Of a stretch of DNA of 64,000 nucleotides, positions 9,618-59,798 are shown in pieces. The notes beneath the pieces were generated by a model. The model saw only the letters and a list, made by a program, of their open reading frames with translations, did not search any database and was not told where the DNA came from. Made by a program: the position numbers and the translations under genes. The DNA is from Patescibacteria group bacterium. Lineage in GTDB: Bacteria; Patescibacteriota; Patescibacteriia; UBA9934. Numbering within the stretch: the stretch's first letter is position 1; each line of letters begins with the position of its first letter. Where the stretch lies: NCBI GenBank assembly GCA_041660165.1, contig JBAZWW010000005.1, forward strand, positions 16,191 to 80,190, in the 5' to 3' direction.

Positions 9618-9621
9618 ACCT

Positions 9622-10302
9622 ATGATCGAAGTAAAGAACGTTAGTAAAACATACATCACCGGAGCTGGATCGTTTGATGCTCTCAAAGGGGTGAGCTTCA
9701 CAATTAAGGACGGCGAGTTTGTGGCCATCATGGGACCTTCGGGTTCTGGTAAAAGTACGCTCATGCATATACTAGGTGCGCTTGATACCCCGACGAGCGG
9801 AACGTACGTTCTCGATGGTAAAGATGTGTCAACGCTTTCGGAGGATGAGCTAGCAGACATTCGCCGCGAACACATCGGGTTCGTCTTTCAAGCATTCAAT
9901 CTCCTACCGCGTGCAAGCGCCATGCGCAACGTTACCCTTCCCCTTGTCTACAAACAGATTCCCAAAGAAAAGCGCGAAAAAATTGCTAAAGCAGCGTTGA
10001 AATCCGCGGGGCTCGACGAGCAATACTTCCACCATCTCTCCAACCAGCTTTCTGGCGGTCAGATTCAGCGCGTCGCCATCGCACGTGCGCTAGTAAATCA
10101 GCCATCGCTTATTCTCGCTGACGAACCGACAGGAAACCTGGACACCCGCACGGGACAAATTGTTCTCGAGACGTTCCAGAAACTCAACCGAGAGGAGAAG
10201 CGTACGATCATTCTCATTACGCACGAGCCCGATGTCGCGGAACACGCCGACCGCATTATCTTCATTCGTGACGGAAAGATCGAAAGCGACAAACCCGTAT
10301 GA
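9622..10302 (+). CDS. ABC transporter ATP-binding protein (MacB/LolD-type)
   Basis: Walker A GPSGSGKST, signature LSGGQIQRVAIARAL, Walker B ILADEPTGNLD. Confidence 0.85.
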   Translation: MIEVKNVSKTYITGAGSFDALKGVSFTIKDGEFVAIMGPSGSGKSTLMHILGALDTPTSGTYVLDGKDVSTLSEDELADIRREHIGFVFQAFNLLPRASAMRNVTLPLVYKQIPKEKREKIAKAALKSAGLDEQYFHHLSNQLSGGQIQRVAIARALVNQPSLILADEPTGNLDTRTGQIVLETFQKLNREEKRTIILITHEPDVAEHADRIIFIRDGKIESDKPV

Positions 10303-23186: not shown

Positions 23187-23684
23187 ATGAAAAATATCGC
23201 GTTTATCACCATGGGTTTTGCGGGGGGAATCGTTGGAACAAGCTTGATCGTCTCAGTCTTCCTTCTTTCAAAGAAACCAATTACACATCATATGCCCTTT
23301 CAAACGAACATCATGAAAGTTACCGCGGATAACACGGATTTCAGGCACGTCATCTTTACTGGTGCAACGTCTCAATTGGTGGTTATGAGCATTCCGCCAG
23401 GAGGAGAGGTAGGCCAGGAGACACACAAGGACGTTGAACAAATGCTGTACTTCCAAACAGGCACGGGCGAGGCCATTTTGGACGGCAAGACGTCAGCCAT
23501 TGTTCCTGGCGATATTGTTGTGGTCACCCCAGGAACACAGCACAACTTCAAGAACACGGGAAAGGTGCCCATGAAGATCATGACCATGTACGCTCCGCCG
23601 AATCATATTGACGGGCGTATTCAAAAGACAAAGGCAGACGCAGATAAAGACAAGGCAGATGAGGCTTTTGGCGAGGCGCAGTAA
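23187..23684 (+). CDS. membrane-anchored cupin-domain protein
   Basis: N-terminal TM then cupin_2 motifs (GQETHKDVEQMLYFQTGTG..PGTQHNFKNTG). Confidence 0.65.
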   Translation: MKNIAFITMGFAGGIVGTSLIVSVFLLSKKPITHHMPFQTNIMKVTADNTDFRHVIFTGATSQLVVMSIPPGGEVGQETHKDVEQMLYFQTGTGEAILDGKTSAIVPGDIVVVTPGTQHNFKNTGKVPMKIMTMYAPPNHIDGRIQKTKADADKDKADEAFGEAQ

Positions 23685-23685
23685 T

Positions 23686-26600
23686 ATGCTTCACAAGCGC
23701 ATAAGTTTTTGGCTTAAGCACCGATTACATCGGATCATTTTGCCGATTCTTGTTGCGATCACGGTACCAACATTGACAGCTTCACTCCTTCTCCATCCCG
23801 CCTACGCAGCGACCATTACGTGGGACGGCGGTGGTGCGGATGGCACATGTGGTGGCGGAGCAGGAGACGGAAACAAATGGTCATGTGCGTTGAACTGGTC
23901 GGGTGACACTCTGCCGGGTGCCGGTGATGCGGTTGTGTTTGATGCAACCTCGACTAAGAACGCCACGGTTGATGCAGGATTTGCGGGAACGGTGACGAGT
24001 ATCAGCATGAACGCTGGTTATACGGGAACCATCACCATGGCCAGATCACTTACGACGAGTGCGATATTCACCCAGGCTGACGGAGTATTTACCGCAGACA
24101 GCCAGTCGTTAACGATCGGCACAGACTTCTCATTGACGGGCGGTGCGTTTACCGCTTCATCGGGTACCATGTTGATTGGTGGGAACTTCACGCACTCGGC
24201 AGGAACGTTTACGCACAATAGTGGAACGGTACGGCTCTCGGGTGCAACCCCGACACTTTCTGGTGCTACTACGTTTAACAATTTTTACGTTGCAACAACG
24301 ACAAATCTTGACGTCACGTTGACGTTGCCTGCGTCGCTTACCACGACAGTGCTTGGCACTACGCGACTTTTAGCCAGTACGCATAACACGCCTGCTGATA
24401 ATAAGCTGACAATTGTCAGTAGTTCTTCCGGTGTTCAGACGAGCGTGGATTTTCAGGGGACTCTCGCCATGTTCGCAGCTCATGTTACTGATGTGAATAA
24501 TGTTGGAGCTAGTCAAATACATTGTTATTCCCAATGCATTGACAACGGAAACAATACGAACGTTCGGTTCGGCGAACCGGGATTTGTGATTACGCAAGCA
24601 TCTAATAATGTGACAGAGGCTGGTGCAACTGCAACGTTTACCGTGGCACTTCGTGGCAAGCCCACCGCGAACGTGACCATTCCTGTATCGGCATCAGACT
24701 CTACAGAGGCAAGCGTTTCACCCGCCTCTCTTGTTTTCACCTCGTTAAATTACGTAACCCCGCAGACCGTTACCGTTACGGGCGTTGATGACACCACGGA
24801 TGACGGAGGGATCGCTTCCTCCATCGTCCTTGCTGTTCCCACGAGCGCTGACACGCTCTATGGTGTTTTGAATCCCGTAGACGTTTCCCTCTTTACTGAA
24901 GACGATGATCAGGATTTGATGACCGTTGATTTTGATAATAGCGCAACGTTGACCGAAGAAGATGTGAAAGGCACCGTCGCCTGGTTTGATCGGACAGATC
25001 AGGGCGAGGGCGTTTTCCGTACGGGAGATGGCGGATCTGCGGTGAGTCTGACCGGTACGAAGATCCTGCCGGGTTGTCGGGCCACAGTTGGCGGAGTTGA
25101 TTATCGAATTTTACGGGTAAGCCCGATCACTACCGGACAAGCGCTTCTCACGGACGGCATAACGTCTCCTGATCAAATATATCTCACACTTGTTGATTCC
25201 GCGGTTTCAAAGATTGTTTGCACCACAGAGCCGGTTGATACTGCTCAACTTGGCGGTAGCACCTCGCGTATTTCTGTTGGGAGTTTGAATCTCTTGTCGG
25301 CCGGTGCCGGACACGGTGGAATTTTGGCGGATGAAACGAATGGACGTATTTGGTTGGGTAACGCCGGTGTTCCGGCTTTGATCGAGGTTTCAATGGCTAC
25401 CGGTCTTGAAGTAGCAAGAAAATCAATGACCAGTTATTCATATAATTTCGTCCTTGATCCGACGCGAAATAGGCTTTGGTTTGCCGATTATAATAGTAAC
25501 AAATTGGTTGCGTTTGATGCGGGTACGGGTGATTATGCATTCGGGACGCTTGGGGCGAGTTCATTTACGGTTTCTGGCCATGCATGGGATGTAGTGTATA
25601 ACCCAGACCTTGATGAGATTTGGGTTGCTACCTTACCGTCGAGCAAACTCATAAGAGTGAATTCAGCAAATGGAGCAGTGATAGATACGGTCGTTTTGGG
25701 CATTGAGGCTAATGGAATTGTTTATGATTCCATTCAGCACGCTGTTTGGATTTCTGGTGGCAATACTTTCAGTACCGCTCTGTATAAATTCTCAGCAACA
25801 ACGGGGACGTTTGCGAATGGAACGTTATTAGCGAGTACGTACCCGATCCCCGGATATGCGGACAGCGGGGACGACTCGATTCGTTTTGACGCGACAAGAA
25901 ATACTATTTGGGTGCTGTCTGCATTTGAAGCTGACGGCGCTGATCCGTTGGTAAAAGTAGACGCCGCAACGGGAAATGTCCTGGCTTCATATGACACGGG
26001 TACTTATGCAGAGGGTCTTGATGTTGATACGGTTCTAGGCAGGGTATATGTTGGTTATTCTAACGTTGATCTTGGGCCTCCTGGAGGCGAATCAACAGGG
26101 GTCATTGTATTTGATGCGGATACCGGTGATCGATTGGCCACATATCCTATAAGTGGCGGTCTTCTGCAATTCGCCTTTCAAAGCAACAACACGCTTTGGA
26201 GCTACAGTTCCTATCCTGATAATGAGTTGGATCAGTTAATAATTGGCGCATCTCCCGCCGGTAAGTACTACACCACGCTCACGACTGCATCTTCAAACCT
26301 CGACTTTGCCGGGACAAACAAAATGGCCTCGGCGGTTGCCTCAGAATCTCTCGATGGCGGGAATGCTTACTACACAATTTCTTTCAATGCTCGGCAGAGT
26401 TTTAAGGTCTTTAGTGGTGGCTGGAGAACGGTCGCGTCGAGTTTGGCCACTGACCACGGTGGCGTTAACGGCAATTGGTATTACAGGAACGATGCAAGCG
26501 CGTGGTCGGTGGCGCCGACGAACACTTCTGCGGAAGCAATTTCTCTTGCGGTCGAGAATGGCGCCACGAACAATCGGATGACGGGTACGAATCTCTCTGG

Positions 26601-27711
26601 AATCTCTCCCGGCAATTGGGCAAATACGGGAGGTTTCTCCACCACAACTGCCAATCTTGATCTGGCCGTCACTCTTGAAGCTGACAGCGTGACCAGCAAC
26701 CCCGCGGTTGACTCTGTAGTGTTTACGCTGGCAGGCGAGGGTTCTTCCGTTGCGCAGAGTGTGACGAACGCATCTGTTTCGATTGCTGACGACGAAACGT
26801 GCACCCCGACCGCTGATACCTCGCTTCACCTTGTGGCAGCGAACGCTTCGAGCGTCCGCGTGTCAAACGAACCGTTCGCCGTGGGAGACTCGAGCGAATA
26901 CATTTCGTTTGTTGCGGATGAGAATATCCCCATTACGCCAAGCGCCTCAGGCTCATTTATTCGTACGATGACCCTACCGTGGACTCTTTCTTCGGGTGAT
27001 GGTGAGAAGACCGTCTACGCGCAGTTCCGTACCGCAACCGGAGGCGTGTCTTCCGAGGTCTCGGACACGATCACTCTTTCGGCCGCGTGTTCTGTCATTC
27101 CGCCGGTTGAACCCGTAGTGCCCGTTGAACCTCCCGCTGAGCCCGCGGTCCCTCCGGTTTTACCAGCTGAGCCAGTTCAGCCAACTGTTCCTCTTCTTGA
27201 GGCTGGTTCTTATGTGAGAACGGCGTCCTCTTCCGCGGTCTACTATATTAGTGCTGATGGTCTGCGTCGGCCGTTCTATTCTGCCACGGAGTTCTTTACG
27301 TATGAGAAGGACTTTTCTCAGGTGCGTGTATTGGCTGATGAAGAGCTGAGAAACTATCCCATTGGCAAGCCTATGCCGCCAAAGCCTGGCGTGGTACTTT
27401 TGAAAATGGTGAGTTCGCCCGATGTATATGCATTTGATCCAAATGCTACGATAGACAATCCGCTTATCCACTTGATTCCAACAGAAATTCTGGCCGTTCA
27501 GTTGTTTGACACGCACTGGGCTGATTACATTATTGATCTTGACCCTACGGCCTTTGTTCATCTCACTATTGGGGACCCGTTGAATGGCCACTCAACCGTT
27601 GATGCTACACATCTCATGAGACGAGTGGCGATTGTTGAGCGAATAGCCAGCTTCCTTAGATCTGTTGTGTCCCAAATTGAAGGTTTCGTAATGAATTTGT
27701 TCGGAAGGTAA
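23686..27711 (+). CDS. very large exported protein with Calx-beta/cadherin-like domain, YVTN-type beta-propeller repeats and Pro-rich linker
   Basis: N-terminal signal/TM; FVITQASNNVTEAGATATFTVALRG..VTVTGVDD; six or more ~40-aa repeats (..IWV.., ..KLV.FDA.TG..); PPVEPVVPVEPPAEPAVPPVLPAEPVQP linker; start chosen at Met right after cupin stop. Confidence 0.7.
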   Translation: MLHKRISFWLKHRLHRIILPILVAITVPTLTASLLLHPAYAATITWDGGGADGTCGGGAGDGNKWSCALNWSGDTLPGAGDAVVFDATSTKNATVDAGFAGTVTSISMNAGYTGTITMARSLTTSAIFTQADGVFTADSQSLTIGTDFSLTGGAFTASSGTMLIGGNFTHSAGTFTHNSGTVRLSGATPTLSGATTFNNFYVATTTNLDVTLTLPASLTTTVLGTTRLLASTHNTPADNKLTIVSSSSGVQTSVDFQGTLAMFAAHVTDVNNVGASQIHCYSQCIDNGNNTNVRFGEPGFVITQASNNVTEAGATATFTVALRGKPTANVTIPVSASDSTEASVSPASLVFTSLNYVTPQTVTVTGVDDTTDDGGIASSIVLAVPTSADTLYGVLNPVDVSLFTEDDDQDLMTVDFDNSATLTEEDVKGTVAWFDRTDQGEGVFRTGDGGSAVSLTGTKILPGCRATVGGVDYRILRVSPITTGQALLTDGITSPDQIYLTLVDSAVSKIVCTTEPVDTAQLGGSTSRISVGSLNLLSAGAGHGGILADETNGRIWLGNAGVPALIEVSMATGLEVARKSMTSYSYNFVLDPTRNRLWFADYNSNKLVAFDAGTGDYAFGTLGASSFTVSGHAWDVVYNPDLDEIWVATLPSSKLIRVNSANGAVIDTVVLGIEANGIVYDSIQHAVWISGGNTFSTALYKFSATTGTFANGTLLASTYPIPGYADSGDDSIRFDATRNTIWVLSAFEADGADPLVKVDAATGNVLASYDTGTYAEGLDVDTVLGRVYVGYSNVDLGPPGGESTGVIVFDADTGDRLATYPISGGLLQFAFQSNNTLWSYSSYPDNELDQLIIGASPAGKYYTTLTTASSNLDFAGTNKMASAVASESLDGGNAYYTISFNARQSFKVFSGGWRTVASSLATDHGGVNGNWYYRNDASAWSVAPTNTSAEAISLAVENGATNNRMTGTNLSGISPGNWANTGGFSTTTANLDLAVTLEADSVTSNPAVDSVVFTLAGEGSSVAQSVTNASVSIADDETCTPTADTSLHLVAANASSVRVSNEPFAVGDSSEYISFVADENIPITPSASGSFIRTMTLPWTLSSGDGEKTVYAQFRTATGGVSSEVSDTITLSAACSVIPPVEPVVPVEPPAEPAVPPVLPAEPVQPTVPLLEAGSYVRTASSSAVYYISADGLRRPFYSATEFFTYEKDFSQVRVLADEELRNYPIGKPMPPKPGVVLLKMVSSPDVYAFDPNATIDNPLIHLIPTEILAVQLFDTHWADYIIDLDPTAFVHLTIGDPLNGHSTVDATHLMRRVAIVERIASFLRSVVSQIEGFVMNLFGR

Positions 27712-32624: not shown

Positions 32625-32715
32625 AGAGGAGGCGACCACCTCTAGACCCCCGCCCGGACGATCCGGTCGGACGGGCTTCCTCACGTCAGGATCTAATCAC
32701 GTCAGAGCCTGATCC
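32625..32715. repeat. GC-rich palindromic intergenic element sharing CCACCTCTAGACCCC with 36893-36960
   Basis: CCACCTCTAGACCCCC + palindrome GCCCGGACGATCCGGTCGGACGGGC + CCTCACGTCAGGATC; related to other repeat families in window. Confidence 0.4.
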
Positions 32716-32769
32716 ACTCAATTCAGCTCTTCCCTTAAAAGGCTCTCTTCAGTATCATTGCGCATCATT

Positions 32770-34548
32770 ATGCGTCCTCTTCTAGAAGTTAAAAGTCTCC
32801 ACAAAACGTACGGCAAACAGGTAGTCCTCGACAACCTGTCTTTTGTGGTGTCTGAGGGGCAGAAGATTGCGCTTATTGGGAGAAATGGGGCGGGTAAATC
32901 GACGCTCCTTAATATCCTTATAGGCAAGGAGGAATCAGATAGTGGGGAAGTGGTTATTTTGCCATGGACAAGGATTGGCGTAGTCCATCAGCATGAAATA
33001 TTACCGAGTGACGTTTCTACCGAGCAGTACTTTGAGATCAAAAGCGGAAAGCCACAATGGGAAACCAGGAAACTCGCCGCTAAGTTTGGACTTGGTCTCG
33101 AAGAACTTGGCAAACCGCCAAGCGCGCTGTCGGGCGGATATCAGATGCGCGTGAAGATCGTCGCGATGCTTCTCGCTGAGCCGAATTTGCTGTTGCTCGA
33201 CGAGCCGGTGAACTACCTCGACCTTTCGACTCTTCTCTTGCTCGAGCGCTTCTTGTTCGAGTACGAGGGGAGCTTCATTGTCACGGCGCATGATCGAGAA
33301 TTCTTGCAGAATACTTGCACCGATACGTTCGAGATCGAACGCGCCGAGCTGACCACGTATCCTGGGGCGGTTGAGGAATACTTTGCGTGGAAAGAAGAAC
33401 AGAAGGAGTTTCAGTTAAGAACAAATAAAAGGTTGAAACGGGAGATAGCTCATCATCAGGACTTTGTTGATCGTTTCCGCTATAAGGCCAGTCAGGCATC
33501 GAGGGCTCAAAGCAAGATCAAACATATCGCGAAACTACGCCATCAAATCGCTACGGTTCATGGCGCGCTGACAACGTCAAGGATTGTGATTCCCACTCCG
33601 CACTTTATTCCTGGTACGGCAGTTCGAGCAGAGAAGATGACCATCGGTTACTCGGACAAAGTGATTGCGAGTGACATTACTTTCGAGTTCAAGCGGGGCG
33701 AGAAGATCGTGATTGCCGGTGAAAACGGGCGGGGCAAGTCAACGCTTTTGAAAACGCTGGCGAGCAGAATTTCGCCACTCGAAGGATCCTTTAAGTGGTG
33801 GCATAAGGCGGATATTGGATACTACGATCAGAAGACTGATGCCACGCTGATTCCGCAAGAAACCGTGCTTGCCTATCTCACCAAGATGGCGCCAGTTCAC
33901 ACTTCCGGCGAGCGGATTTTGATGATGGCGGGCAACTTTTTGTTTCGAAATGATGACCTCGAAAAGACGTGTAGCGTGCTGTCCGGTGGTGAGCGAGCTC
34001 GTCTCTGTCTTGCTGGCATTCTTTTGCACGAGCATAACGTGCTGATCCTTGACGAACCGACCAACCACCTTGATGTTGAGACCGCCGAAGCGCTGGCGCT
34101 GGCGCTCAAGGAATACGGCGGGACGGTTATTTTCGTATCCCACGCCCGCACGTTCGTAAACGCGCTCGCGGACCAGATTTATGAGATTCGCGGGGGTACA
34201 TTGCGCCACTATGTGGGGACGTATGAAGAATATGTCGCTGACCTGGCGGACGCGACCACCCTGACCACCGACTCCCCCGTAGCCCCCCTCGGGCGTAGCC
34301 CTCAACCCTACGGGCGAGCCTCTTGGAAGGAGGGGGAGCGCACCACCCTGAACAAGTCCGAGGCGCATGCGCTCCAAAAAGAAGAGCGCCGTAGGGCCGA
34401 GCGCGAAAAACAAAAACTCGCCCTCCTGGAAAAAGAGAAGAGCGAAATTCTCGCCTACTTCTTTGAGAATCCAACTGACTACGCCCCAGCCAAGGCGACG
34501 AGGCTGAAGGAGCTAGACGAGCTCATTGAGCGGAGTTCAAGATCCTGA
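32770..34548 (+). CDS. ABC-F family ATPase (tandem ABC domains, no TM)
   Basis: two Walker A (GRNGAGKST, GENGRGKST) and two signatures (LSGGYQMRV, LSGGERARL); C-terminal coiled coil. Confidence 0.85.
   Translation: MRPLLEVKSLHKTYGKQVVLDNLSFVVSEGQKIALIGRNGAGKSTLLNILIGKEESDSGEVVILPWTRIGVVHQHEILPSDVSTEQYFEIKSGKPQWETRKLAAKFGLGLEELGKPPSALSGGYQMRVKIVAMLLAEPNLLLLDEPVNYLDLSTLLLLERFLFEYEGSFIVTAHDREFLQNTCTDTFEIERAELTTYPGAVEEYFAWKEEQKEFQLRTNKRLKREIAHHQDFVDRFRYKASQASRAQSKIKHIAKLRHQIATVHGALTTSRIVIPTPHFIPGTAVRAEKMTIGYSDKVIASDITFEFKRGEKIVIAGENGRGKSTLLKTLASRISPLEGSFKWWHKADIGYYDQKTDATLIPQETVLAYLTKMAPVHTSGERILMMAGNFLFRNDDLEKTCSVLSGGERARLCLAGILLHEHNVLILDEPTNHLDVETAEALALALKEYGGTVIFVSHARTFVNALADQIYEIRGGTLRHYVGTYEEYVADLADATTLTTDSPVAPLGRSPQPYGRASWKEGERTTLNKSEAHALQKEERRRAEREKQKLALLEKEKSEILAYFFENPTDYAPAKATRLKELDELIERSSRS
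34265..34341. repeat. MITE-like element inserted in frame in the ABC-F gene, flanked by 10-bp direct repeats ACCACCCTGA
   Basis: direct repeats at 34255-34264 and 34342-34351 (87 nt apart); inside TIR-like CTCCCCC...GGGGGAG and core CCTCGGGCGTAGCCCT..CTACGGGCGAGCC shared with 36908 and 52498. Confidence 0.45.
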
Positions 34549-36538: not shown

Positions 36539-36898
36539 CTACGCCCCGTGGCATTCAATGAATTTCTTACCGCTATTGCAGTAACAGTCTGATAATTTTT
36601 CTTCAAGTTTGTTTAGTTTGCCTTTAGCTTGGCTTGGATTATTTCGGAGGAGATAGAGGAGCTGGTAGTCGCCGGTATTGCTTCGGATGTTTTCCAATGC
36701 CTCCTGCCATTCTTCAAGTGTGGTGGCTTCGTCTGCCTTTTTTTGTAGATCAAGAATATGCGCGAGGATTTCCGGTGGAATCACCACCGGATGTTCCTTG
36801 AGCCATTCCTCGAACTTTGCTCTATTCGCCCACCATTCGTCTCTTGAATATTTTTCGGGCATATTATTAGCGATCTTTGTATTTTCGATTCGCTCCAC
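36539..36898 (-). CDS. SEC-C motif protein
   Basis: C-terminal CYCNSGKKFIECHG metal-binding motif. Confidence 0.55.
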   Translation of the reverse strand: MERIENTKIANNMPEKYSRDEWWANRAKFEEWLKEHPVVIPPEILAHILDLQKKADEATTLEEWQEALENIRSNTGDYQLLYLLRNNPSQAKGKLNKLEEKLSDCYCNSGKKFIECHGA

Positions 36899-36960
36899 CT
36901 CTAGACCCCTCGGGCGTAGCCCTACGGGCGAGCCTTCAGCGCCAGAGTCTAATATGTTTG
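36893..36960. repeat. GC-rich palindromic element (CCACCTCTAGACCCC + CTCGGGCGTAGCCCTACGGGCGAGCC)
   Basis: shares left module with 32637 and hairpin core with 34289 and 52498. Confidence 0.4.
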
Positions 36961-46162: not shown

Positions 46163-47212
46163 ATGGCCAGGTCAAGCGGAAAGTCTATGATTACTTTGAC
46201 GAAAACATTTTCCCGGGAGCGTGCGCTGTTTTACGTAAATCTCTTCATGGAGAGCGATCGGCGGGCTATGTGGGAGTGGCTTGGGTACAGTCTGAAGAAT
46301 GCTTTGTATCTTCGTGAGGGCGCCACCAATAAGGTTTCTTGTTGGTATGAGGCAAGTGAGTTTAACGGTTGGCATGAGCTTTTAGCTCAGAAAGTAGCTG
46401 AAGACCCATCATTGATCGATCGGCTGAAACAATCTTTGGCCGAGCATTGGGCTGTTGCGTTACCTTATCTGACGCGCGAGAAAATGATCACGAACGTGGA
46501 TGAATTTACCGAATACTACACGGCAATTGTTTCCTGGTGGTCTGCCATGGCCAATTTCTTCTTCATTCCTAATCTTGATGTACCGGAAAATATTAAGCAT
46601 GAAGCATTGAAGCAGCGCGAGGCGGTTGAAAGTTATTCCGATACCATGGATCGGCTCTGTATCGAGTATTGGCAGAAGTATTACCCCGAGTTTGCGGATG
46701 TTGCTTTTGTCATTTCGCCGTATGAAGTAATGACGGCGGGTAGGGAAGGGGTTGAGGCCATTGATATTGAAGGGATTAAAAAACGCCTTCAAGGATATGG
46801 GTTGTTAAACGGAAAGCTGTATTTGCTTCCTGAGCTTAAAATCGAAATGGAGAAGGATGGCCTCGTATTTGCTTCTGTTGACGTTGCAGAGATCACTCAA
46901 TTCAAGGGGGCCATTGCAAGCATGGGCAAGGCCATCGGTAAAGTTCGGTTAGTACTTTTGAAGAGTCAGATTGGTGAATTACTCGAAGGCGAAGTTCTTG
47001 TTACGGAAATGACTAATCCGGATTTTGTATCCGCCATGAAGAAGGCTGCCGCGATTATCACGGACGAAGGCGGTGTCACCTGTCATGCCGCGATTGTATC
47101 CCGTGAACTTCACGTCCCATGCATTATCGGCACAAAGATAGCGACGCAGGTTTTGAAGGACGGAGATCTAGTGGAGGTTGACGCAAATACAGGGATCGTG
47201 CGGAAGATATAG
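46163..47212 (+). CDS. PEP-utilizing-enzyme swivel (phosphohistidine) domain protein, paralog A
   Basis: C-terminal ~100 aa AIITDEGGVTCHAAIVSRELHVPCIIGT..GDLVEVDANTGIV; novel N-terminal ~240-aa domain. Confidence 0.7.
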   Translation: MARSSGKSMITLTKTFSRERALFYVNLFMESDRRAMWEWLGYSLKNALYLREGATNKVSCWYEASEFNGWHELLAQKVAEDPSLIDRLKQSLAEHWAVALPYLTREKMITNVDEFTEYYTAIVSWWSAMANFFFIPNLDVPENIKHEALKQREAVESYSDTMDRLCIEYWQKYYPEFADVAFVISPYEVMTAGREGVEAIDIEGIKKRLQGYGLLNGKLYLLPELKIEMEKDGLVFASVDVAEITQFKGAIASMGKAIGKVRLVLLKSQIGELLEGEVLVTEMTNPDFVSAMKKAAAIITDEGGVTCHAAIVSRELHVPCIIGTKIATQVLKDGDLVEVDANTGIVRKI

Positions 47213-47216
47213 AGCT

Positions 47217-48224
47217 ATGCCCACCATCTATCGTAAACACATGACGCGCGATTTGGCGTTGTTTGGGTGCGAATATTGGTGGGAGGGGGAGCGCAGAGAA
47301 ATTTCGAAGATGTTTTCGGGATCTGGGTATGGAATGAATCCCTTCTTTGTCTCTACGCCGGGTTTTGGCGTGGGCGTGCATTACGATTGGTATAGCGAGG
47401 AGGATGATCCTATTCGTTTGGCCGAGCATTTCAATGCGCATGAAAGCGAAGTTTTCGGCTGGATTGCCAGCCATGAGGCGCGATGCGCGAAAGTGACCGA
47501 GCTCATAAGGTGGGCATCACCAGAGGATTTTGCATTGCTTCATGATGAAGTTATAGCCATGTGGCCCATGATTGTAGCGAGTAATTTGCCCGGTGATTTT
47601 GCAAAAGTAGCCAAGCCGGAGATTCGGGATAGTTTGTTTGCGCTCCGCTTAAAGACTGATCATGTTGCGTATGACGCCGGAGATGCGATGATTGAGATGG
47701 CCAAGGCGCTCGTGGGATCGGAATATGCGGATGACGTAAAGTTTTTGCGCCGTGCTGAGATTTTGACCGGCAAGTTTCCAGCTAGAGAAGAGCTTGATAA
47801 AAGAAAGCGCGGTTATATTTTTTCAGATGGTGAATTGCTTTTTATGTCACTCGACGAGTTCTTGGTGGCGAGAGATTTTGCGGTGGAAGTGCCTGACGCT
47901 GATCCTCGAGCGGTATCTGGTATCTGTGCCTGTCCCGGCATTATTCAAGGCGAGGTTCGGGTGCTCTATACGGTTGCCGATATTCCGCGTATGCACTCAG
48001 GCGACATCCTTGTCATGCCAATGACGACGCCAAATTTTCTCTCCGCCATAAAACTGGCCGGCGCGATTGTGACGGACGAGGGTGGTATCACTTGCCACGC
48101 GGCGATTGTGGCCAGGGAACTTGGCAAGCCATGTATCATTGGGACAAAGAATGCGACCGAAGCGTTGCACGATGGGGATCTGGTAGAGGTTGATGCTGAG
48201 AGGGGCATTGTCACAAAACTATGA
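47217..48224 (+). CDS. PEP-utilizing-enzyme swivel domain protein, paralog B
   Basis: GAIVTDEGGITCHAAIVARELGKPCIIGT..GDLVEVDAERGIV; N-terminal domain unrelated in sequence to A. Confidence 0.7.
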   Translation: MPTIYRKHMTRDLALFGCEYWWEGERREISKMFSGSGYGMNPFFVSTPGFGVGVHYDWYSEEDDPIRLAEHFNAHESEVFGWIASHEARCAKVTELIRWASPEDFALLHDEVIAMWPMIVASNLPGDFAKVAKPEIRDSLFALRLKTDHVAYDAGDAMIEMAKALVGSEYADDVKFLRRAEILTGKFPAREELDKRKRGYIFSDGELLFMSLDEFLVARDFAVEVPDADPRAVSGICACPGIIQGEVRVLYTVADIPRMHSGDILVMPMTTPNFLSAIKLAGAIVTDEGGITCHAAIVARELGKPCIIGTKNATEALHDGDLVEVDAERGIVTKL

Positions 48225-49309
48225 ATAAACCCGTCTTCACTTCAAACCAACCTTCTATAACCGAATGGTTTTCGGCTATTGGGAATGAGGCTGAGGCTTC
48301 AGCGTTTCGGGAGGAGGATAATAAGAAAGTTGATCGCTTAGAGTCGTTGTTTCAGGAAATTGGCCTGCCATATGAACGGCCGGAGGCGTTTGAGGCCGTG
48401 GAACTTACCGAGTGCTCGCCGAGGTTTGCGGATGTACTCGCACAAAAGGGAGATGAGTTGTGCGCGATTAGACTTGTGCCGAAGGATTCAAGTTTGCCGA
48501 AGCTGAGACAACGCGGGCTTCCTTTGAAAGAAACATATGAGAATTGGTACAAGAAACAGGACATTGAACCGGCAAAATATACGGCGTTTGTTTGCCCGCA
48601 CGCAGACGCGCTCCTGTGGGCGTCTACTTTTGTTATTGGCTATGAGGGGATCATCGGCGAGATTGTGCACGGCGGGCATTCGCAGTTAACACACGGGGAA
48701 AGCAAAGAGACGGTTTATAGATTTTCATACGATTGGAATAACTGGCAGTGGTCGGAATCAAGTGTTGAGGCTGAGGCCGAGGTGAATCGAACGCTCGAGT
48801 TGCTTCTCGTCAAGAATCCGGATGTGCAACACTCGCTTAAAGAAAAGCTTGGCGTCGAGTTTGTGAAGGGGTATCTTGTTGGCTATTTTGAAACTACGGT
48901 GTGGCCGGATAACAAGGTTTACTTCATTGATTTTAATCGCGTACTCCAGAAGTTAGTCTCGTTGCCATTGCACTCGGACACAAATGACACAGAACGGTGG
49001 GGAGCAACGGCATTTGGCGGGATTGCAAGAGGGACGGTACGGATTGTGACCGAGGCATCCCTCGAATCCGCACTCTTCGAGTCTGGCGACATTCTAGTAT
49101 GCGACAACACGGACGTTCGGTATCTCCCGCTCATGCAAAAAGCCGGGGCAATTATAACTGATCGAGGAGGCATCCTGAGCCACGCCGCGATTGTGGCGCG
49201 AGAACTCAAGAAACCCTGCATCATTGGCACAAAGAATGGAACAGGTAAGCTGAAAGAGGGGATTCTAGTAGAAGTAGATGCTGAAAAGGGCCAGGTGCGA
49301 GTTTTGTAG
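48221..49309 (+). CDS. PEP-utilizing-enzyme swivel domain protein, paralog C
   Basis: GAIITDRGGILSHAAIVARELKKPCIIGT..GILVEVDAEKGQV (His retained, TCH->LSH); 4-nt overlap with B. Confidence 0.7.
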   Translation: MNKPVFTSNQPSITEWFSAIGNEAEASAFREEDNKKVDRLESLFQEIGLPYERPEAFEAVELTECSPRFADVLAQKGDELCAIRLVPKDSSLPKLRQRGLPLKETYENWYKKQDIEPAKYTAFVCPHADALLWASTFVIGYEGIIGEIVHGGHSQLTHGESKETVYRFSYDWNNWQWSESSVEAEAEVNRTLELLLVKNPDVQHSLKEKLGVEFVKGYLVGYFETTVWPDNKVYFIDFNRVLQKLVSLPLHSDTNDTERWGATAFGGIARGTVRIVTEASLESALFESGDILVCDNTDVRYLPLMQKAGAIITDRGGILSHAAIVARELKKPCIIGTKNGTGKLKEGILVEVDAEKGQVRVL

Positions 49310-51078: not shown

Positions 51079-52574
<1,496 letters not shown>

Positions 52575-52616
52575 GATGAGAGCGGGGTCTTGCAAAGACT
52601 GCTATAATCTCTCCGT

Positions 52617-53000: not shown

Positions 53001-55590
53001 CCGCCCCGGCGTTCGCGCTGGCGACAGAATGTACGTTTGGAAAGCGGAGGTAAATTCCGTGGCCACGGCCCATGCCCGCGGATTATTGAAGGCGCGAAAA
53101 GTTGCCATGATGGCGGGCTTTGTGCTTAGTGTTATTTCGATTTTGGGTTTTGCAGGATTGCTAACGCTGGCAGAGCAACAATCAGGAGCGGGCGTTGCAT
53201 TTTTCACCACTCCGCACTCGCTTGTAGCTTTACTTCCGCTTGGGCTATTGCTGTTCTGCTTTGCTTTTTTTGAGCGCCAGATGATTTTGCGAGTCATTGC
53301 CAAGATGCCGGCAGGAGAGATTGAGTATGAGGAAGGCGTGAACGCGCAAATGAGCGGAGACTTTTCTGAAATGTTTGACGCTGAGGCCGTGAAGGCCGTT
53401 GAAGACGCGTTTGCGGTGGCAGAGAAAAACGGAGATGCAAGCGTAGGCTCGATTCATTTATTTGTTGGGGCCATTGGCACGCCTGCCGGGCAGATTCTTT
53501 TTGCTAGACTCGGTCTGAGCATTGAGAGCATGAAGGCCCAGCTCAGGCGTCATCTTGGGATAGAAACAAAAGGTGAGACGACCTTTGATGACAGAGCGAT
53601 GGGCATCCTGGCGCGGGCGTTCATGCTGGCGCAAAGAGGCGGGCGCCCGCATGTTTCAAGTTTAGATATTTTGGCGGCCTGTTATTCTGCGGATGAATTT
53701 TTCCCGCAGTTGTTTGAGGAATTTAGCATTCCAAGCGCAGAACTCAACAATGCGCTTCACTGGATGTTTATTACCGAAGAATTGCAGGAACGCTATCACT
53801 CGCTCCGCAGGGCCGCGGCCTTCAAACCCACGGGCAACATGGATCGCGCTATGACGGCTATTGCTACGCCGTTTCTTGACTCAGTCAGCGAGGATCTGAC
53901 GCGTGATGCGGTGTATGGCCGAACCGGTTTGCTAGTTGGGCGCGATGAGGAACTCGCATCAGTGTTTCGAGCTATTGAGGGAGGCAATACGAGCGTGGTG
54001 CTTGTTGGCCCGTCCGGTGTTGGCAAGTCGGCAATCATCGACGGCATTGCAGACCTCATGGTTGAAGAGAAGGTGCCGAAGATCCTTGAAGACAAACGTT
54101 TACTCAAAATCTCGATCCCGCACATTGTGAGCGCGCAAGGTGGAAAAGGTGCCGAGGAACGGCTTTTGTACGCGCTCCGAGAAGTGGGACATTCAGGCAA
54201 TATCGTCCTTGTGATCGAGGATATCCATGAGCTGGTTGGCACGGGGTCAGGAACGGGCATTGATCTCTCTTCTATTTTGTCGAGCGAGCTTGAGAAGGGC
54301 TACACCTTTGTCATCGCGACTACCACTGCGCAAGGTTATACCGAAGCGGTCGAGCGATCAGTCCTCGGCAAGCGACTTGAGCGGATTGTGATCGCCGAGC
54401 CTGATCGGGATCTCGCTATCAGAATTATCGAGGCGAAAATTGGAGGCATTGAGGGGAAGCATCATGTCGTCTTCACGTACGGAGCGCTTGCTTCCGCGGT
54501 TGATCTCTCTATCCGTTATCTTCATGACGGCGTGCTTCCTGAAAAAGCGATTGCCCTTCTGCGCGAGGTAGCGCTGACGGTTTCCAAAAAAGGCGCAGGC
54601 TTGCAGTGGGTGATGAAGGAAGACGTGGCGGAAATGATTCACGCTAAGACGAACATTGCTGTCACGGAGGTCACGCAGGATGAGGGGGCAAAGCTTTTGA
54701 ACCTTGAGGCAAAATTGCATGAGCGATTGATTGGCCAGGAGACGGCGGTCTCTGCTGTTTCTTCAGCACTTAGGCGAGCACGAACTGAGATGCGGAGCGA
54801 AGGGAAACCTATCGCGAACTTTTTGTTCCTTGGTCCCACGGGTGTTGGAAAAACCGAGCTGGCAAAAGCCACGGCCGAAGTATTTTTTGGCAACGAGCAA
54901 TCCATGACGCGTTTTGACATGAGCGAGTATCAGAACAAGGAATCGGTTTCGAGGTTGATTGGTGGTAACGGCCAGGGCGGACAGCTGACCGAGGCGATTC
55001 GGCGCAATCCATTCTGTTTGCTCTTGCTCGACGAGCTTGAAAAAGCGCATCCCGACATTTTGAACTTGTTCCTTCAGGTAATGGATGATGGGCGGTTGAC
55101 CGATGGACTCGGCCAGACGGTTGATTTCACAAACGTCATTTTGATTGCAACCTCGAATGCCGGCACTCAATACATTCAAGACGAGGTAGCCAAGGGAACC
55201 GGACTGCCGATTATCCGTGAGGCGCTGATGGCGGGCGAGCTCAAGAGCCTATTCCGGCCAGAATTCCTTAACCGGTTTAACGACGTGATCGTGTTCTCGC
55301 CGTTGACTGAGGCGGATGTCACCGCGATTGCGTATTTGATGATCGACAAGGTGAAAAAGCGCATGGAGGCTAAGGGAATCTCACTCGAGGTGGGCGATGC
55401 AGCCATTCACGAGCTTGGCCGGCTTGGTTATGATCCTAAATTTGGCGCCAGGCCATTGCGACGAACGATCGAGGAAAAACTTGAGAACAAGCTGGCTGAT
55501 GAATTGTTGCGGGGATCATTTGAGCGGAGAGATACAATTATTTTTGACGTAGGGGGGAAAATTGAGGTAAGAAAGGCGGAGAAACTTTGA
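52990..55590 (+). CDS. Clp/Hsp100-family AAA+ ATPase (ClpC/ClpB-like, two NBDs) with N-terminal membrane anchor
   Basis: two TM helices before a Clp_N-like domain; NBD1 Walker A GPSGVGKS, NBD2 GPTGVGKT; short middle region, no obvious ClpP-binding IGF loop; true start may be internal Met. Confidence 0.8.
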   Translation: MEDNRPGVRAGDRMYVWKAEVNSVATAHARGLLKARKVAMMAGFVLSVISILGFAGLLTLAEQQSGAGVAFFTTPHSLVALLPLGLLLFCFAFFERQMILRVIAKMPAGEIEYEEGVNAQMSGDFSEMFDAEAVKAVEDAFAVAEKNGDASVGSIHLFVGAIGTPAGQILFARLGLSIESMKAQLRRHLGIETKGETTFDDRAMGILARAFMLAQRGGRPHVSSLDILAACYSADEFFPQLFEEFSIPSAELNNALHWMFITEELQERYHSLRRAAAFKPTGNMDRAMTAIATPFLDSVSEDLTRDAVYGRTGLLVGRDEELASVFRAIEGGNTSVVLVGPSGVGKSAIIDGIADLMVEEKVPKILEDKRLLKISIPHIVSAQGGKGAEERLLYALREVGHSGNIVLVIEDIHELVGTGSGTGIDLSSILSSELEKGYTFVIATTTAQGYTEAVERSVLGKRLERIVIAEPDRDLAIRIIEAKIGGIEGKHHVVFTYGALASAVDLSIRYLHDGVLPEKAIALLREVALTVSKKGAGLQWVMKEDVAEMIHAKTNIAVTEVTQDEGAKLLNLEAKLHERLIGQETAVSAVSSALRRARTEMRSEGKPIANFLFLGPTGVGKTELAKATAEVFFGNEQSMTRFDMSEYQNKESVSRLIGGNGQGGQLTEAIRRNPFCLLLLDELEKAHPDILNLFLQVMDDGRLTDGLGQTVDFTNVILIATSNAGTQYIQDEVAKGTGLPIIREALMAGELKSLFRPEFLNRFNDVIVFSPLTEADVTAIAYLMIDKVKKRMEAKGISLEVGDAAIHELGRLGYDPKFGARPLRRTIEEKLENKLADELLRGSFERRDTIIFDVGGKIEVRKAEKL

Positions 55591-55670
55591 TCCCATCCCG
55601 ACGACAGGAGGGATAGTATTTCATCCGAAGATCCTCGGCTAGAATGCTACCCCTCCTCACGTCGGGGTGG
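55589..55670. repeat. inverted pair of CATCCCGACG..GGAGGGA-family repeats upstream of wecA-like gene
   Basis: GATCCCATCCCGACGACAGGAGGGAT (55589-55614) and CCCCTCCTCACGTCGGGGTGG (55650-55670) form an imperfect hairpin with ~35-nt loop. Confidence 0.45.
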
Positions 55671-56722
55671 AGACAGTGGTTATGCCGATCTGGTTCCCGT
55701 TTCCCATCATCGCAAGCTTTGTCCTGACCGCACTATTCGTCCCTGCGGTGATTGCGGTTGCGAAGCGTTTTGGGATACTCGACAAGCCAACTGGCGGACG
55801 GAAGATTCACACCTTACCAACTCCGCTCATGGGCGGGCTGGCGTTGTTCCTTGGTTTTCTCATTCCAGTAATTGTAGTTCTTTTGGCAAGCAATCATCTG
55901 ACGAGCGGGCAGATTGGACTTCGGCACTACTTCGGTTTTGCGTTGGCTGGAACGGTTCTCATGGTCGGTGGAATACTCGACGACAAATTTAATCTCTCGC
56001 CAAAGAAAAGCATTTGGTTCCCGGTGCTCGCCGCCTTGATTGCGAGTCTTGCAGGAATCGGCGTCTCGAAAATCACGAATCCGTTCGGCGGTGCCATTTT
56101 CGTCATGCCAATCGTGTCTGGCGTAATGACGTTCGTCTGGCTCCTCGTCATGTCGTATGCGACGAAGTTGCTCGATGGTGTGGACGGTTTAGCGGCGAGC
56201 GTTGGGACGACTGCCTCACTCGCAATCACGGCCCTCGCGCTTAGCAAAATGTACTTCCAGCCTGATGTAGCACTTCTTTCAATGATGTTCGCGGCTTCGT
56301 TGCTCGGCTTCTTGCTGTGGAACTTTCCACGAGCGCGAATTTTCCTTGGCGAAGGCGGGAGTACGTTTCTGGGTTTCACCCTTGGCACGCTCGCCATTAT
56401 TTCCGGGAGCAAGATGATCACGCTTCTCCTGGTCCTTGGCATCCCGTGCCTAGACATTATTCACGTAGCGTATAGGCGATACTCCGAGGGACGTTCAATT
56501 ACGTCCGGCGATAGATACCACTTTCATCATTTGCTGTTCGATGCAGGCTTGAGCGAAAGACAAGTGGTGGCGGTGTACGCGCTGTTTACCATTCCCTTTG
56601 GCAGTGCCACGCTGTTCTTTTCACATGCGTACAAGTTGTTCATTTTGCTTGGTCTCTCGATCCTCTTTCTAGTCGTTGCCAGCTTCCTGTATCATAAGCA
56701 TAATGTTGTCATCCCGACGTGA
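55667..56722 (+). CDS. glycosyltransferase family 4 (MraY/WecA-type polyprenyl-phosphate hexosamine-1-phosphate transferase)
   Basis: 10-11 TM; GILDKPTGGRKIHTLPTPLMGGLA and DGVDGLA motifs. Confidence 0.8.
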   Translation: METVVMPIWFPFPIIASFVLTALFVPAVIAVAKRFGILDKPTGGRKIHTLPTPLMGGLALFLGFLIPVIVVLLASNHLTSGQIGLRHYFGFALAGTVLMVGGILDDKFNLSPKKSIWFPVLAALIASLAGIGVSKITNPFGGAIFVMPIVSGVMTFVWLLVMSYATKLLDGVDGLAASVGTTASLAITALALSKMYFQPDVALLSMMFAASLLGFLLWNFPRARIFLGEGGSTFLGFTLGTLAIISGSKMITLLLVLGIPCLDIIHVAYRRYSEGRSITSGDRYHFHHLLFDAGLSERQVVAVYALFTIPFGSATLFFSHAYKLFILLGLSILFLVVASFLYHKHNVVIPT

Positions 56723-56787
56723 GGAGGGATCTGCATTGAACGATAGTTTCTGATGGTAATTCAGATCCCTCGCTTTGCTCGGGATGA
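56706..56787. repeat. inverted pair of the same 28-bp repeat family at wecA 3' end
   Basis: TTGTCATCCCGACGTGAGGAGGGATCTG (56706-56733, perfect reverse complement of 51827-51854) and CAGATCCCTCGCTTTGCTCGGGATGAC (56761-56787) with 27-nt spacer. Confidence 0.5.
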
Positions 56788-57289
56788 CACAAATAACACT
56801 ATGTCCGAACATCAATCAGGCATGCCGGGAATTGTGAAGACCAGCCTTCAGCTGTTGGGCGTCTTTGTGGTACTGATGATTGCGCTGACGGTTTTCTCGA
56901 AGGTCTCGTTTAGATCAACCACGAAAACTGTAACGATCGCTGGCCGAGGCTATGACGTCCTTGTGGCGAACACGCCCGAAGGACGCTACCAGGGATTATC
57001 GGGCAAGACCATTCAGGGTATGCACGCCGAAGGCATGATCTTTACGTTTCCAACCGTTGAGGAAAGAACATTTGAAATGCGCCGGATGCTTTTCCCCTTG
57101 GATTTTCTCTGGGTGCACGATGGGCTGATTGTAAAAATTGATCAGGATATTCCTGCGCCGAAGGGAAAAGAAAAACCGGCCAAGATTTCCTCAGCGCCGT
57201 ATGCGGTAGAAACGGTCTTTGAGTTTCCGGCGGGCTTTGTGAAAACGAACCATCTCAATCTTGGCGATTCGGTCCTCGGCGTTAAATAA
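56753..57289 (+). CDS. DUF192 family protein
   Basis: GLSGKT..GMIFTFP..FPLDFLWV..DGLIVKI pattern; start probably Met at 56801, since upstream part is repeat-encoded. Confidence 0.5.
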   Translation: MVIQIPRFARDDTNNTMSEHQSGMPGIVKTSLQLLGVFVVLMIALTVFSKVSFRSTTKTVTIAGRGYDVLVANTPEGRYQGLSGKTIQGMHAEGMIFTFPTVEERTFEMRRMLFPLDFLWVHDGLIVKIDQDIPAPKGKEKPAKISSAPYAVETVFEFPAGFVKTNHLNLGDSVLGVK

Positions 57290-58825: not shown

Positions 58826-58917
58826 AGAACAGATTGACACAGATCAAGGCGCGGGACAGATTGAACACAGATATAAGAGCGAGTCCTCACGGGCTCGTTT
58901 TTGTTTTTTGCACCAGC

Positions 58918-59346
58918 ATGTTACTATCGGCGGGTATGGATTTACAGATTCCTGAACAAACACAGAAGCAATTAGAGAAACTGGGCGTTTCGGCCCTGTA
59001 CCTTTTTGGTTCCCGTGCGATGGGAGCGGAGGGCCCGTTGTCGGACTTCGATTTTGCGGTGTTGATGAATCATGCCGGCCATAGTCGAGGAGACAAGACA
59101 TACGATGCGCTGTACGATTTGCTGAGTCCGTTGTGTTCAAGGACACTCGAAAATGATGTGATAGACATTGTATTCCTGAGGGACGCTCCGCTTGAGCTCA
59201 AGGCGCATATTATTCGTTACGGAAAGATATTATTCGAATCGAACCCGCTCGAGCGCGGTCAATTTGAAGAAGAGACAACCCTTGAAGCTGCTGATTTCAG
59301 GCCACATCAAAACATCATTGATCAAACTATTCTTGCTTCGCTATGA
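58918..59346 (+). CDS. minimal nucleotidyltransferase (MntA-like antitoxin)
   Basis: GS-x9-DxD pattern: LFGSRAMGAEGPLSDFDFAVL. Confidence 0.65.
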   Translation: MLLSAGMDLQIPEQTQKQLEKLGVSALYLFGSRAMGAEGPLSDFDFAVLMNHAGHSRGDKTYDALYDLLSPLCSRTLENDVIDIVFLRDAPLELKAHIIRYGKILFESNPLERGQFEEETTLEAADFRPHQNIIDQTILASL

Positions 59347-59798
59347 ATTTACCTCTTGAAAAAGAAGCCATTTTACCTCGGCTAGACGGTATTCGGAAAA
59401 ATATCGCCAAATTACGATCGCTCGGAGAACTTCCGATAGAAAAGTTTGAGACCGGCGATGCGTTTGATCTGGCTCAACATCATCTCCGTCTTGCGCTTGA
59501 AGGCGTTTTCCATCTTGGTTCTCACATTTTGTCTCGTATCCCTGGCGGTCGCGCTGTTGAGTATTCGGGCATCGCTTTGAAGCTTGGCGAGTTGGGAATA
59601 GTCGATAAGAAATTCGCCAATGAGAAACTGGTACCGATGGCTAAGTTACGAAATCTTCTTGTTCATCAATACGCTGATATTAATCCCGTTCGTATTTACG
59701 GGATTACTCATGATTATTTGGGTGATATCGAGCTATTTTTGAAAGCAGTAGGTGAAGTTGTCGAGCATCCAGAAAAGTGGAATTTAACCATCGAATAA
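59343..59798 (+). CDS. HEPN-domain protein (HepT-like toxin, DUF86)
   Basis: Rx4-6H motif RNLLVHQY; 4-nt overlap with MNT gene. Confidence 0.6.
   Translation: MNLPLEKEAILPRLDGIRKNIAKLRSLGELPIEKFETGDAFDLAQHHLRLALEGVFHLGSHILSRIPGGRAVEYSGIALKLGELGIVDKKFANEKLVPMAKLRNLLVHQYADINPVRIYGITHDYLGDIELFLKAVGEVVEHPEKWNLTIE

Follow-up and report, generated by a model that had tools for sequence, protein, structure and literature searches.

The ABC-F gene and its linker

The window analysed here, a 64-kb stretch of DNA from a Patescibacteria bacterium, contains three copies of a short GC-rich palindromic repeat, one of which lies in frame inside the gene of an ABC-F translation ATPase. This gene, the parts of its repeat-bearing segment and the related features of the window and of other genomes are collected in Table 1. 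The open reading frame (ORF) listed there begins at a TTG codon; translation probably starts instead from the ATG at 32770. The nearest protein relatives are ABC-F ATPases of Patescibacteria (candidate phyla radiation, CPR), and the named ones among them are from Candidatus Uhrbacteria.

The repeat-bearing segment, 34255-34351, was described in the initial annotation as an in-frame insertion separating the second ABC domain from the C-terminal coiled coil, and both the frame, which stays open throughout the segment, and the position were borne out. An alignment with E. coli YbiT (comparison with solved structures) stops at residue 494, the end of ABC2, and 24 aligned orthologs show a linker, from ...YEEYV.DL to the conserved ...ALQKEER... 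helix, that is variable in both its length and its sequence. The AlphaFold model of the protein has a mean predicted local distance difference test score (pLDDT) of 82; residues 505-530 score below 50 and have no secondary structure, being flanked by a helix (489-504) and by the long C-terminal helix (525-570). The insert is thus predicted to fall in a disordered linker after the second ABC domain.

Table 1. Positions of the ABC-F gene, the repeats and associated features. L-numbers denote loci in other genomes, L001 being that of the closest ABC-F ortholog.
Feature	Sequence	Position	Strand	Remarks
ABC-F (YbiT/YheS-like) ATPase gene	window	32758..34548	+	ORF, 596 aa from TTG start; homologs named ABC-F or subfamily F member 3
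Direct repeat ACCACCCTGA, left copy, 10 nt	window	34255..34264	+	ancestral by comparison with L001, where it is present; not a core-generated duplication
Older outer hairpin segment, GACTCCCCCGTAGCCC-core-CCTCTTGGAAGGAGGGGGAGCGC	window	34270..34341	+	common to L001, there without the core
Core copy A, CC-CTCGGGCGTAG (34288-34298)-CCCTCAACC-CTACGGGCGAG (34308-34318)-CC	window	34286..34320	+	family match and DNA alignments with L001
Direct repeat ACCACCCTGA, right copy, 10 nt	window	34342..34351	+	reads ACCACCCGGA in L001
Core copy B, canonical 28-mer	window	36907..36934	+	intergenic, between Band_7 gene and 119-aa ORF
Core copy C, canonical 28-mer	window	52503..52530	-	nested in the loop of a larger hairpin
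Composite hairpin, second-family 22-nt arms 52484-52505 and 52553-52574	window	52481..52577		holds core copy C; overlaps TGT stop codon
Second repeat family CCCTCCTCACGTCGGGRTG	window	55590-55673; 56706-56789; 52484-52574; 32678-32692		repeat comparison
tRNA-Trp adjoining palindrome	L004	7460-7555		palindrome abuts position +1
tRNA-Ser(GGA) adjoining palindrome	L017; L022	7319-7428; 50-161		palindrome abuts position +1

A younger insertion nested in an older hairpin

The initial annotation had read the segment as a single MITE-like insertion (MITE, miniature inverted-repeat transposable element), 87 nt long, with a 10-bp target-site duplication and 29 added amino acids (residues 502-530). Its raw observations were reproduced: ACCACCCTGA occurs exactly twice in the window, at the two positions given and 87 nt apart (0 of 100 shuffles gave two matches); the inverted termini CTCCCCC and GGGGGAG lie at 34272-34278 and 34332-34338; and the core CCTCGGGCGTAGCCCT recurs, being exact at 34287 and 36908 and inverted at 52514-52529. 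A different picture of the unit and its size emerges from the closest ABC-F ortholog, P0001 (88% amino acid identity), from a metagenome-assembled genome (MAG) of Candidatus Uhrbacteria, MFD02832.bin.1.179, contig_65833. At the corresponding site this locus, L001, reads GCGACCACCCTGACCACCGACTCCCCCGTAGCCC/CCTCTTGGAAAGAGGGGGAAGTCACCACCCGGAGC and lacks exactly 33 nt of the window sequence. The missing block consists of CTCGGGCGTAG, CCCTCAACC, CTACGGGCGAG and two C's and encodes L511-A521, the 11 residues LGRSPQPYGRA; its placement is ambiguous by 2 nt (34286-34318, 34287-34319 or 34288-34320), and the junction shows only this CC ambiguity. The outer part, by contrast, is present in L001: ACCACCCTGA...ACCACCCGGA together with GACTCCCCCGTAGCCC and CCTCTTGGAAAGAGGGGGAA, that is, the CTCCCCC/GGGGGA inverted termini and both 10-mers, ACCACCC(T/G)GA, the second with one change (9/10 identical).

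Since L001 has the outer repeats and the hairpin but not the core, the segment was built in at least two steps; the outer hairpin and the ACCACCC(T/G)GA repeats were already present in the common ancestor of the window genome and its closest known relative. As read from these alignments, the 87-nt "element" has a nested build, in which a younger 33-nt insertion is held by an older hairpin segment that has direct repeats of Thr codons. The presumed target-site duplication therefore does not survive, the repeats being older than the core and not flanking it, and the 29-residue insertion shrinks to 11 lineage-specific residues. The initial annotation had named as refutation the same 29-residue segment in orthologs without a related repeat family; half of this applies, since L001 retains 18 of the 29 residues but its genome also carries the repeat family. 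What stands of the original reading is that a dispersed palindromic family member was inserted into the ABC-F gene, with a unit of 33 nt instead of 87.

The core is also absent from five further close orthologs (84-86% identical), three of which (L048-L050) lack the entire GC-rich segment. In L002 and L003 a related 29-nt hairpin, GACCCCCTCTATCCCACTGGAAGGGGGAA, occupies the same linker position, and the outer hairpin segment is related to GACCCCCTCTATCC...GGGGGAAG elements that occur in the genome of the relative and in this linker of L002 and L003. Parsimony favours a gain of the 33 nt in the window lineage over a loss in L001. As regards the ABC-F protein, the insertion is an ordinary event and probably functionally neutral; the consequence for the gene is probably nil, the disordered linker merely being longer.

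Other peculiarities of the orthologs were noted in passing. Directly upstream of the ABC-F gene L001 has a diversity-generating retroelement (8357-9987; bAvd and an RVT_1 reverse transcriptase), where the window has a gene for a transporter of the major facilitator superfamily (MFS). The ortholog P0008 has a 29-residue insertion of its own, PVQIENPSTSSGSARPSIVKDHERGRTSH, inside the second ABC domain (alignment columns 359-387). The N-terminus of P0011 reads MTGVQTCALPICPA, presumably a translated Illumina adapter and hence an assembly artefact in a public protein.

The repeat unit and its distribution

The full common unit of the family is the 28-mer CCCTCGGGCGTAGCCCTACGGGCGAGCC, which is exact in core copies B and C; the ABC-F copy is the same unit with seven extra central bases. 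In general form the conserved unit is CC-CTCGGGCGTAG-(2-9 nt)-CTACGGGCGAG-CC, an 11-nt inverted repeat, the arms of which are complementary at nine of 11 positions and are interrupted by two central G/G positions that make the unit asymmetric. Arm variants forming a perfect palindrome were absent from 694 kb of loci, though these had been picked by the asymmetric pattern. The canonical form is a 24-nt palindrome with CC flanks; its insertion length is 27 nt, that is, nine codons, and TAG interrupts two of its six reading frames, whereas the four open ones read LGRSPTGE, PSGVALRAS, GSPVGLRPR and LARRATPE. The tetranucleotide GTAG lies inside an arm, paired with CTAC, and the ends of the unit are CC. 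All three window copies have perfect arms, and two of them are nested in loops of other palindromes; copy B belongs to a mosaic module, a second instance of which, at 32636-32697, has another inner hairpin. As a single strand, DNA or RNA, the canonical unit folds no better than shuffled sequences because its centre is only 2 nt long. Nor is the 97-nt ABC-F segment, for which the initial annotation had proposed RNA folding, more stable than shuffles (z = -0.15). Significant folds are confined to the composite hairpin 52481-52577 (RNA z = -5.9 on both strands) and to the outer hairpin, the L001 version of which forms a 9-bp hairpin (DNA z = -2.55).

A wider search for the core was made with the pattern CTCGGGCGTAG-N(2-12)-CTACGGGCGAG in one genome per species (596 Gb), counting only copies with exact arms. 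It returned 44 loci in reference genomes, where about 0.7-3.6 would be expected by chance. The carriers are labelled Uhrbacteria, Nomurabacteria, Staskawiczbacteria, Paceibacterota/Parcubacteria and Saccharibacteria, with a few MAGs labelled otherwise; one Bacteroidales locus (L047) is without the typical flanks and may be a chance match. The CC on each side, which was outside the search pattern, is found in 44-45 of 46 copies, and the sequence beyond it is unrelated between copies, so that the conserved unit includes the CC ends. Centres are CC in 29 copies, TC in four and ACCGCC in four; no other copy has the 9-nt centre seen in ABC-F.

The closest relative, without a copy in its ABC-F gene, has at least ten exact copies elsewhere in its genome. 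Four of them are nested in the same type of outer hairpin (GACCCCCTCT..CC-core-CC..GGGGGAA), and one copy, L029, shares a contig with the ABC-F gene. None of these copies is syntenic with the window, so that they yield no further filled and empty pairs, and no long indels were reported within BLAST alignments of the window with its relatives. In several genomes the only exact copy found is one in the gene for DHFR or GatB. At three loci the 24-nt palindrome abuts position +1 of a tRNA without a gap (Table 1). The searched literature contains no description of the sequence or of the encoded peptides, and no work on Patescibacteria in it also mentions repetitive extragenic palindromic (REP) elements, MITEs or interspersed repeats; the family thus appears undescribed, and its recurrence at fixed sites unusual.

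Some copies belong to larger arrangements. L006 and L012, from the same MAG, have identical flanks of ~40 nt on each side, so that the core there belongs to a longer duplicated segment encoding the N-terminus of pilin-like proteins. L018, L020, L040, L021 and L038 are ~60-nt composites of the form AGCCTCGCCCGTrG...CTACC-core-CCrGCCGAGGG, in which an upstream CTCGCCCGTAG-like arm perfectly complements the right arm of the core, making an alternative pairing possible.

Recurrent inserts in housekeeping genes

Some half of all copies are found within long ORFs, where they keep the frame and contain no stop codon, in either orientation. Hosts confirmed by Pfam are a class I tRNA synthetase (IleRS-like), GatB, whose copy lies within the catalytic domain, IF-2, S-adenosylhomocysteine hydrolase (SAHH), PBP2 and an RluD-type pseudouridine synthase; DnaE, ClpB, ValRS, PriA and PilB-like proteins were judged to be hosts by eye. 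None of four candidates checked is a split or frame-shifted host gene. With the genes unsplit and the frames kept, the intragenic copies are most simply regarded as translated, and probably are. As a separate observation, the IleRS-like ORF (L042, from a Paceibacterota MAG), which has the palindromic element at residue 43, also has a histidine-phosphatase domain (His_Phos_1) inserted mid-protein, at residues 535-719.

Two genes were followed across larger sets of homologs. In the DHFR of Nomurabacteria-like CPR bacteria, the canonical 27-nt insert stands between ...KTFES and IGKPLPNRRN in 12 of 119 close homologs. When the insert is left out of neighbour-joining trees, ~11 gains or losses are required to account for the 12 carriers (bootstrap range 9-12), as compared with 11.6 for shuffled labels. 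The carrier P0125 and the non-carrier P0188 are 93% identical and otherwise differ only by the nine insert residues. Among ten DNA copies, six of which had been retrieved via the protein and were hence not selected for the DNA pattern, pairwise identity is 92-93% in the insert versus 72-76% in the remaining gene, and of the third codon positions, 4 of 9 are variable within the insert versus 151 of 162 in the rest (p = 4e-4). Synonymous differences start immediately outside the insert, which makes transfer of a long tract by recombination unlikely. A metagenome scan with DHFR gave only five close relatives. In GatB, the 27-nt insert has the opposite orientation (GSPVGLRPR) and lies between GG/GEK and VVQETR in 6 of 120 homologs; its six carriers need five changes in 100 of 100 bootstraps, and their nearest relatives are empty. 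In both DHFR and GatB, the same codon position is occupied in non-sister lineages.

A probable small mobile element and its alternatives

Taken together, these observations point to a very small mobile element. The explanation that is on balance considered probable is that the ABC-F linker holds nested short GC-rich palindromic repeats, the younger of which is a selfish, non-autonomous miniature element, akin to REPs or to the Rickettsia palindromic elements (RPEs), that is mobilised in trans. Such a DNA element would be inserted at the DNA level by an enzyme encoded elsewhere, possibly with precise removal as well. The enzyme would have a marked site preference; one related to the REP-associated tyrosine transposases (RAYTs), or another sequence-specific nuclease or transposase, seems most likely. 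Strong site preference with possibly precise excision is a combination known from the HUH/Y1 world (IS200/IS605, RAYT). At the ABC-F locus, where the older hairpin came first and this lineage later gained the 33 nt in its loop region, the translated copy would be neutral. Within genes, only in-frame, stop-free insertions at tolerant positions would survive, the length of nine codons and the four open frames letting selection retain copies in permissive protein regions. That the ABC-F site is tolerant is supported by the variability of the linker among orthologs, its place after the end of ABC2 and its low pLDDT. A more speculative point concerns the seven extra loop bases: arms plus centre (31 nt) and 2 nt make 33 nt, whereas the canonical 24 + 2 would shift the frame, so that the enlarged centre may be compensatory and keep the copy in frame.

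Several findings weigh against this explanation. The poor folding of the canonical unit counts against a single-strand mechanism guided by a hairpin; a dimeric protein could at least as plausibly recognise the unit as an imperfect palindrome in double-stranded DNA. No target motif beyond C/CC is common to the DHFR, GatB and ABC-F sites, the insertion lengths differ (27 and 33 nt), and the junction is ambiguous. Most genomes apart from the relative have 1-3 exact copies, unlike proliferating REPs or MITEs. Pfam scans of 70 ORFs of the window gave no match to families of transposases, recombinases or HUH/Y1 enzymes; neither a RAYT gene nor another partner enzyme was found in these 64 kb. No match to the pattern was found in 2.9 million viral contigs, and with it no vector for spread; a phage origin was rejected on this result. 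Finally, conservation at the nucleotide level could mean that the motif has a function.

A stronger version, entertained only tentatively, is that of a 27-nt micro-element present throughout the Patescibacteria, which a site-selective, homing-like machinery would insert, and perhaps precisely remove, at particular sites within essential genes (DHFR, GatB) and at the boundaries of tRNA genes. It would then be the smallest mobile DNA described, and the recognising enzyme would hold its sequence nearly constant across distant lineages.

The main rival takes the 24-28 nt palindrome for a selected functional cis-element: a site for a conserved dimeric DNA-binding protein, a signal of the DNA-uptake or segregation type, or an RNA signal. 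This is judged unlikely, though a good deal speaks for it: the unit is near-invariant across distant Patescibacteria and far more conserved than synonymous sites of its hosts, copies are few per genome, the 2-nt centre suits double-stranded recognition better than a hairpin, and three copies abut tRNAs as described. A functional site would not be expected to arrive by insertion, to be absent from most close relatives of each carrier and to reside in unrelated genes, and 1-11 copies per genome are too few for an uptake signal. Copies occur in both orientations relative to transcription, which argues against a role as RNA. The Rfam searches agree: at the gathering score the whole window yielded only a tRNA, and at E up to 10 nothing credible was returned for copies A and C. 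With no credible Rfam match, and with the core and the 97-nt segment folding no better than shuffles, a structured RNA was rejected.

An ancestral origin of the 33 nt with a precise deletion in L001, the DHFR and GatB inserts being likewise ancient and lost many times, is improbable. Palindromes are prone to deletion, and the scattered presence and absence on both gene trees would accord with repeated loss. DHFR alone, however, would require ~100 independent exact losses of 27 nt, and the sole flanking microhomology (CC) would yield 26-nt deletions, out of frame. Divergence comparable to that of adjacent synonymous sites would also be expected of an ancient insert and is not seen, and all five other close ABC-F orthologs are without the core.

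The original reading, one 87-nt MITE-like insertion that duplicated ACCACCCTGA as its 10-bp target and added 29 residues, has become very improbable. In its favour, the 10-mer occurs only twice and brackets the inverted-repeat segment, and the more distant orthologs L048-L050 are without any of the GC-rich segment. It is contradicted by L001, which has both repeats and the outer termini but not the core; the ACCACCCTGA repeats do not flank a member of the repeat family. Local direct repeats of 10 nt (20-100 nt apart) are moreover common in the window, with 15 pairs versus 3.8 in shuffles, so that the pair alone is weak evidence of a target duplication, and further copies of the outer element have no comparable flanking repeat. 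With its length of 27-35 nt and no internal sequence, the element resembles a REP more than a MITE.

Chance similarities in a fast-evolving, low-complexity linker, with no element at all, would fit the hypervariability of the linker among orthologs and the insignificant folds; this idea retains next to no credibility, given the exact 28-nt matches at two other sites of the window, and was already refuted by the census of 44 loci elsewhere.

The genomes of Patescibacteria are small. In this large radiation, a 27-nt element housed by essential genes would newly contribute to variation in protein length and to annotation noise. The peptides LGRSPTGE(P), GSPVGLRPR, PSGVALRAS and LARRATPE flag such inserts in protein alignments, and a near-identical element recurring at the same codons would be a handle for finding a sequence-specific DNA enzyme.

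A second repeat family and neighbouring loci

Inverted doublets resembling REPINs are made up by members of a second repeat family, CCCTCCTCACGTCGGGRTG, in intergenic stretches of the window, for example between the genes for a ClpB-like protein and a glycosyltransferase. The gene for tRNA-guanine transglycosylase (TGT; 51097..52497) has an in-frame insert of 20 residues at 51827-51886, absent from the TGT of the relative, which is built from a 28-nt unit of the second family, CAGATCCCTCCTCACGTCGGGATGACAA (recurring inverted at 56706-56733), and a 21-nt tandem duplication. The left arm of the composite hairpin, the loop of which holds core copy C, forms the final four codons of TGT together with its TAA stop. 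The modules at 32636-32697, just upstream of the ABC-F start, and 36895-36955 have common outer flanks, CCACCTCTAGACCCC...TCTAAT, and different inner hairpins, GCCCGGACGATCCGGTCGGACGGGC in one and the core in the other, a mosaic arrangement like that of bacterial interspersed mosaic elements (BIMEs). Elsewhere in the window lie three tandem paralogs with a PEP-utilizers mobile domain (46163-49309), a nucleotidyltransferase/HepT pair of toxin-antitoxin type (58834-59798) and an ORF of 1367 residues without a Pfam match (23608-27711).

Comparison with known systems

Bacterial MITEs are ~50-500 bp long and have terminal repeats of 15-30 bp, an internal region and a target duplication of fixed length. 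The element described here resembles them in lacking autonomy, in its inverted-repeat borders, in being dispersed and in lying in frame in some genes. It is, however, no more than a pair of 11-nt arms around a centre of 2-9 nt, 27-35 nt overall, without an internal region; instead of a fixed target duplication, its junction has a C/CC overlap of 1-2 nt at most. Uptake signal sequences and DNA uptake sequences (USS/DUS) number hundreds to thousands per genome, whereas parS sites are low in copy number and conserved across phyla. Both kinds of site are short conserved motifs that are also found within coding regions, as is the present unit; they arise by substitution in place, however, whereas here a block of 27 nt is inserted. 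In yeast mitochondrial genes, mobile GC-rich palindromic clusters and "byp" elements were reportedly described by Lang et al. in 2014. Byps (27-55 nt) are comparable as very short GC-rich palindromic insertions in essential coding sequences; they break the frame and are skipped by the ribosome, in contrast to the intragenic copies examined here, all of which are in frame and stop-free.

In function, the closest counterparts of the element are REPs and RPEs. REP and REPIN elements are mobilised by RAYT tyrosine (HUH/Y1) transposases (PMC2817692, PMC3116915, PMC3733652). Di Nocera et al. (PMC3733652) describe REPs located within genes, others set in small target palindromes, and clusters of mosaic structure, as well as the REP tag, GTAG (or CGTC), unpaired at one end of the stem-loop (PMC3733652). 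In agreement with REPs, the unit is a GC-rich imperfect palindrome of 20-40 nt that contains GTAG, and it too occurs in genes and nested, as some REPs do (PMC3733652). It differs in the absence of an unpaired terminal GTAG/CGTC tag and in abundance and location: REPs are usually high-copy and extragenic, whereas here there are three copies in 64 kb, at least ten in the relative and mostly 1-3 elsewhere, about half of them intragenic. REPs are also usually species-specific, whereas this unit is conserved across lineages, and while RAYT genes are flanked by REPs, none was seen in the window.

RPEs, which Ogata et al. reportedly described in 2000, are palindromic repeats found in frame in protein genes of Rickettsia. 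The likeness is close: a palindromic repeat of a bacterium with a reduced genome lies in frame in still-functional genes, including housekeeping genes, and also between genes. In-frame insertion in ORFs is seen here in ABC-F, DHFR, GatB, the IleRS-like protein, IF-2, SAHH, PBP2 and RluD. RPEs are also described in PMC3733652. They are ~100-150 bp long, occur only in Rickettsia and have a CGTC tag, whereas the present unit, at 27-35 nt, is nearly unchanged across many lineages of Patescibacteria and, unlike RPEs, recurs at identical codons in lineages that are not sisters.

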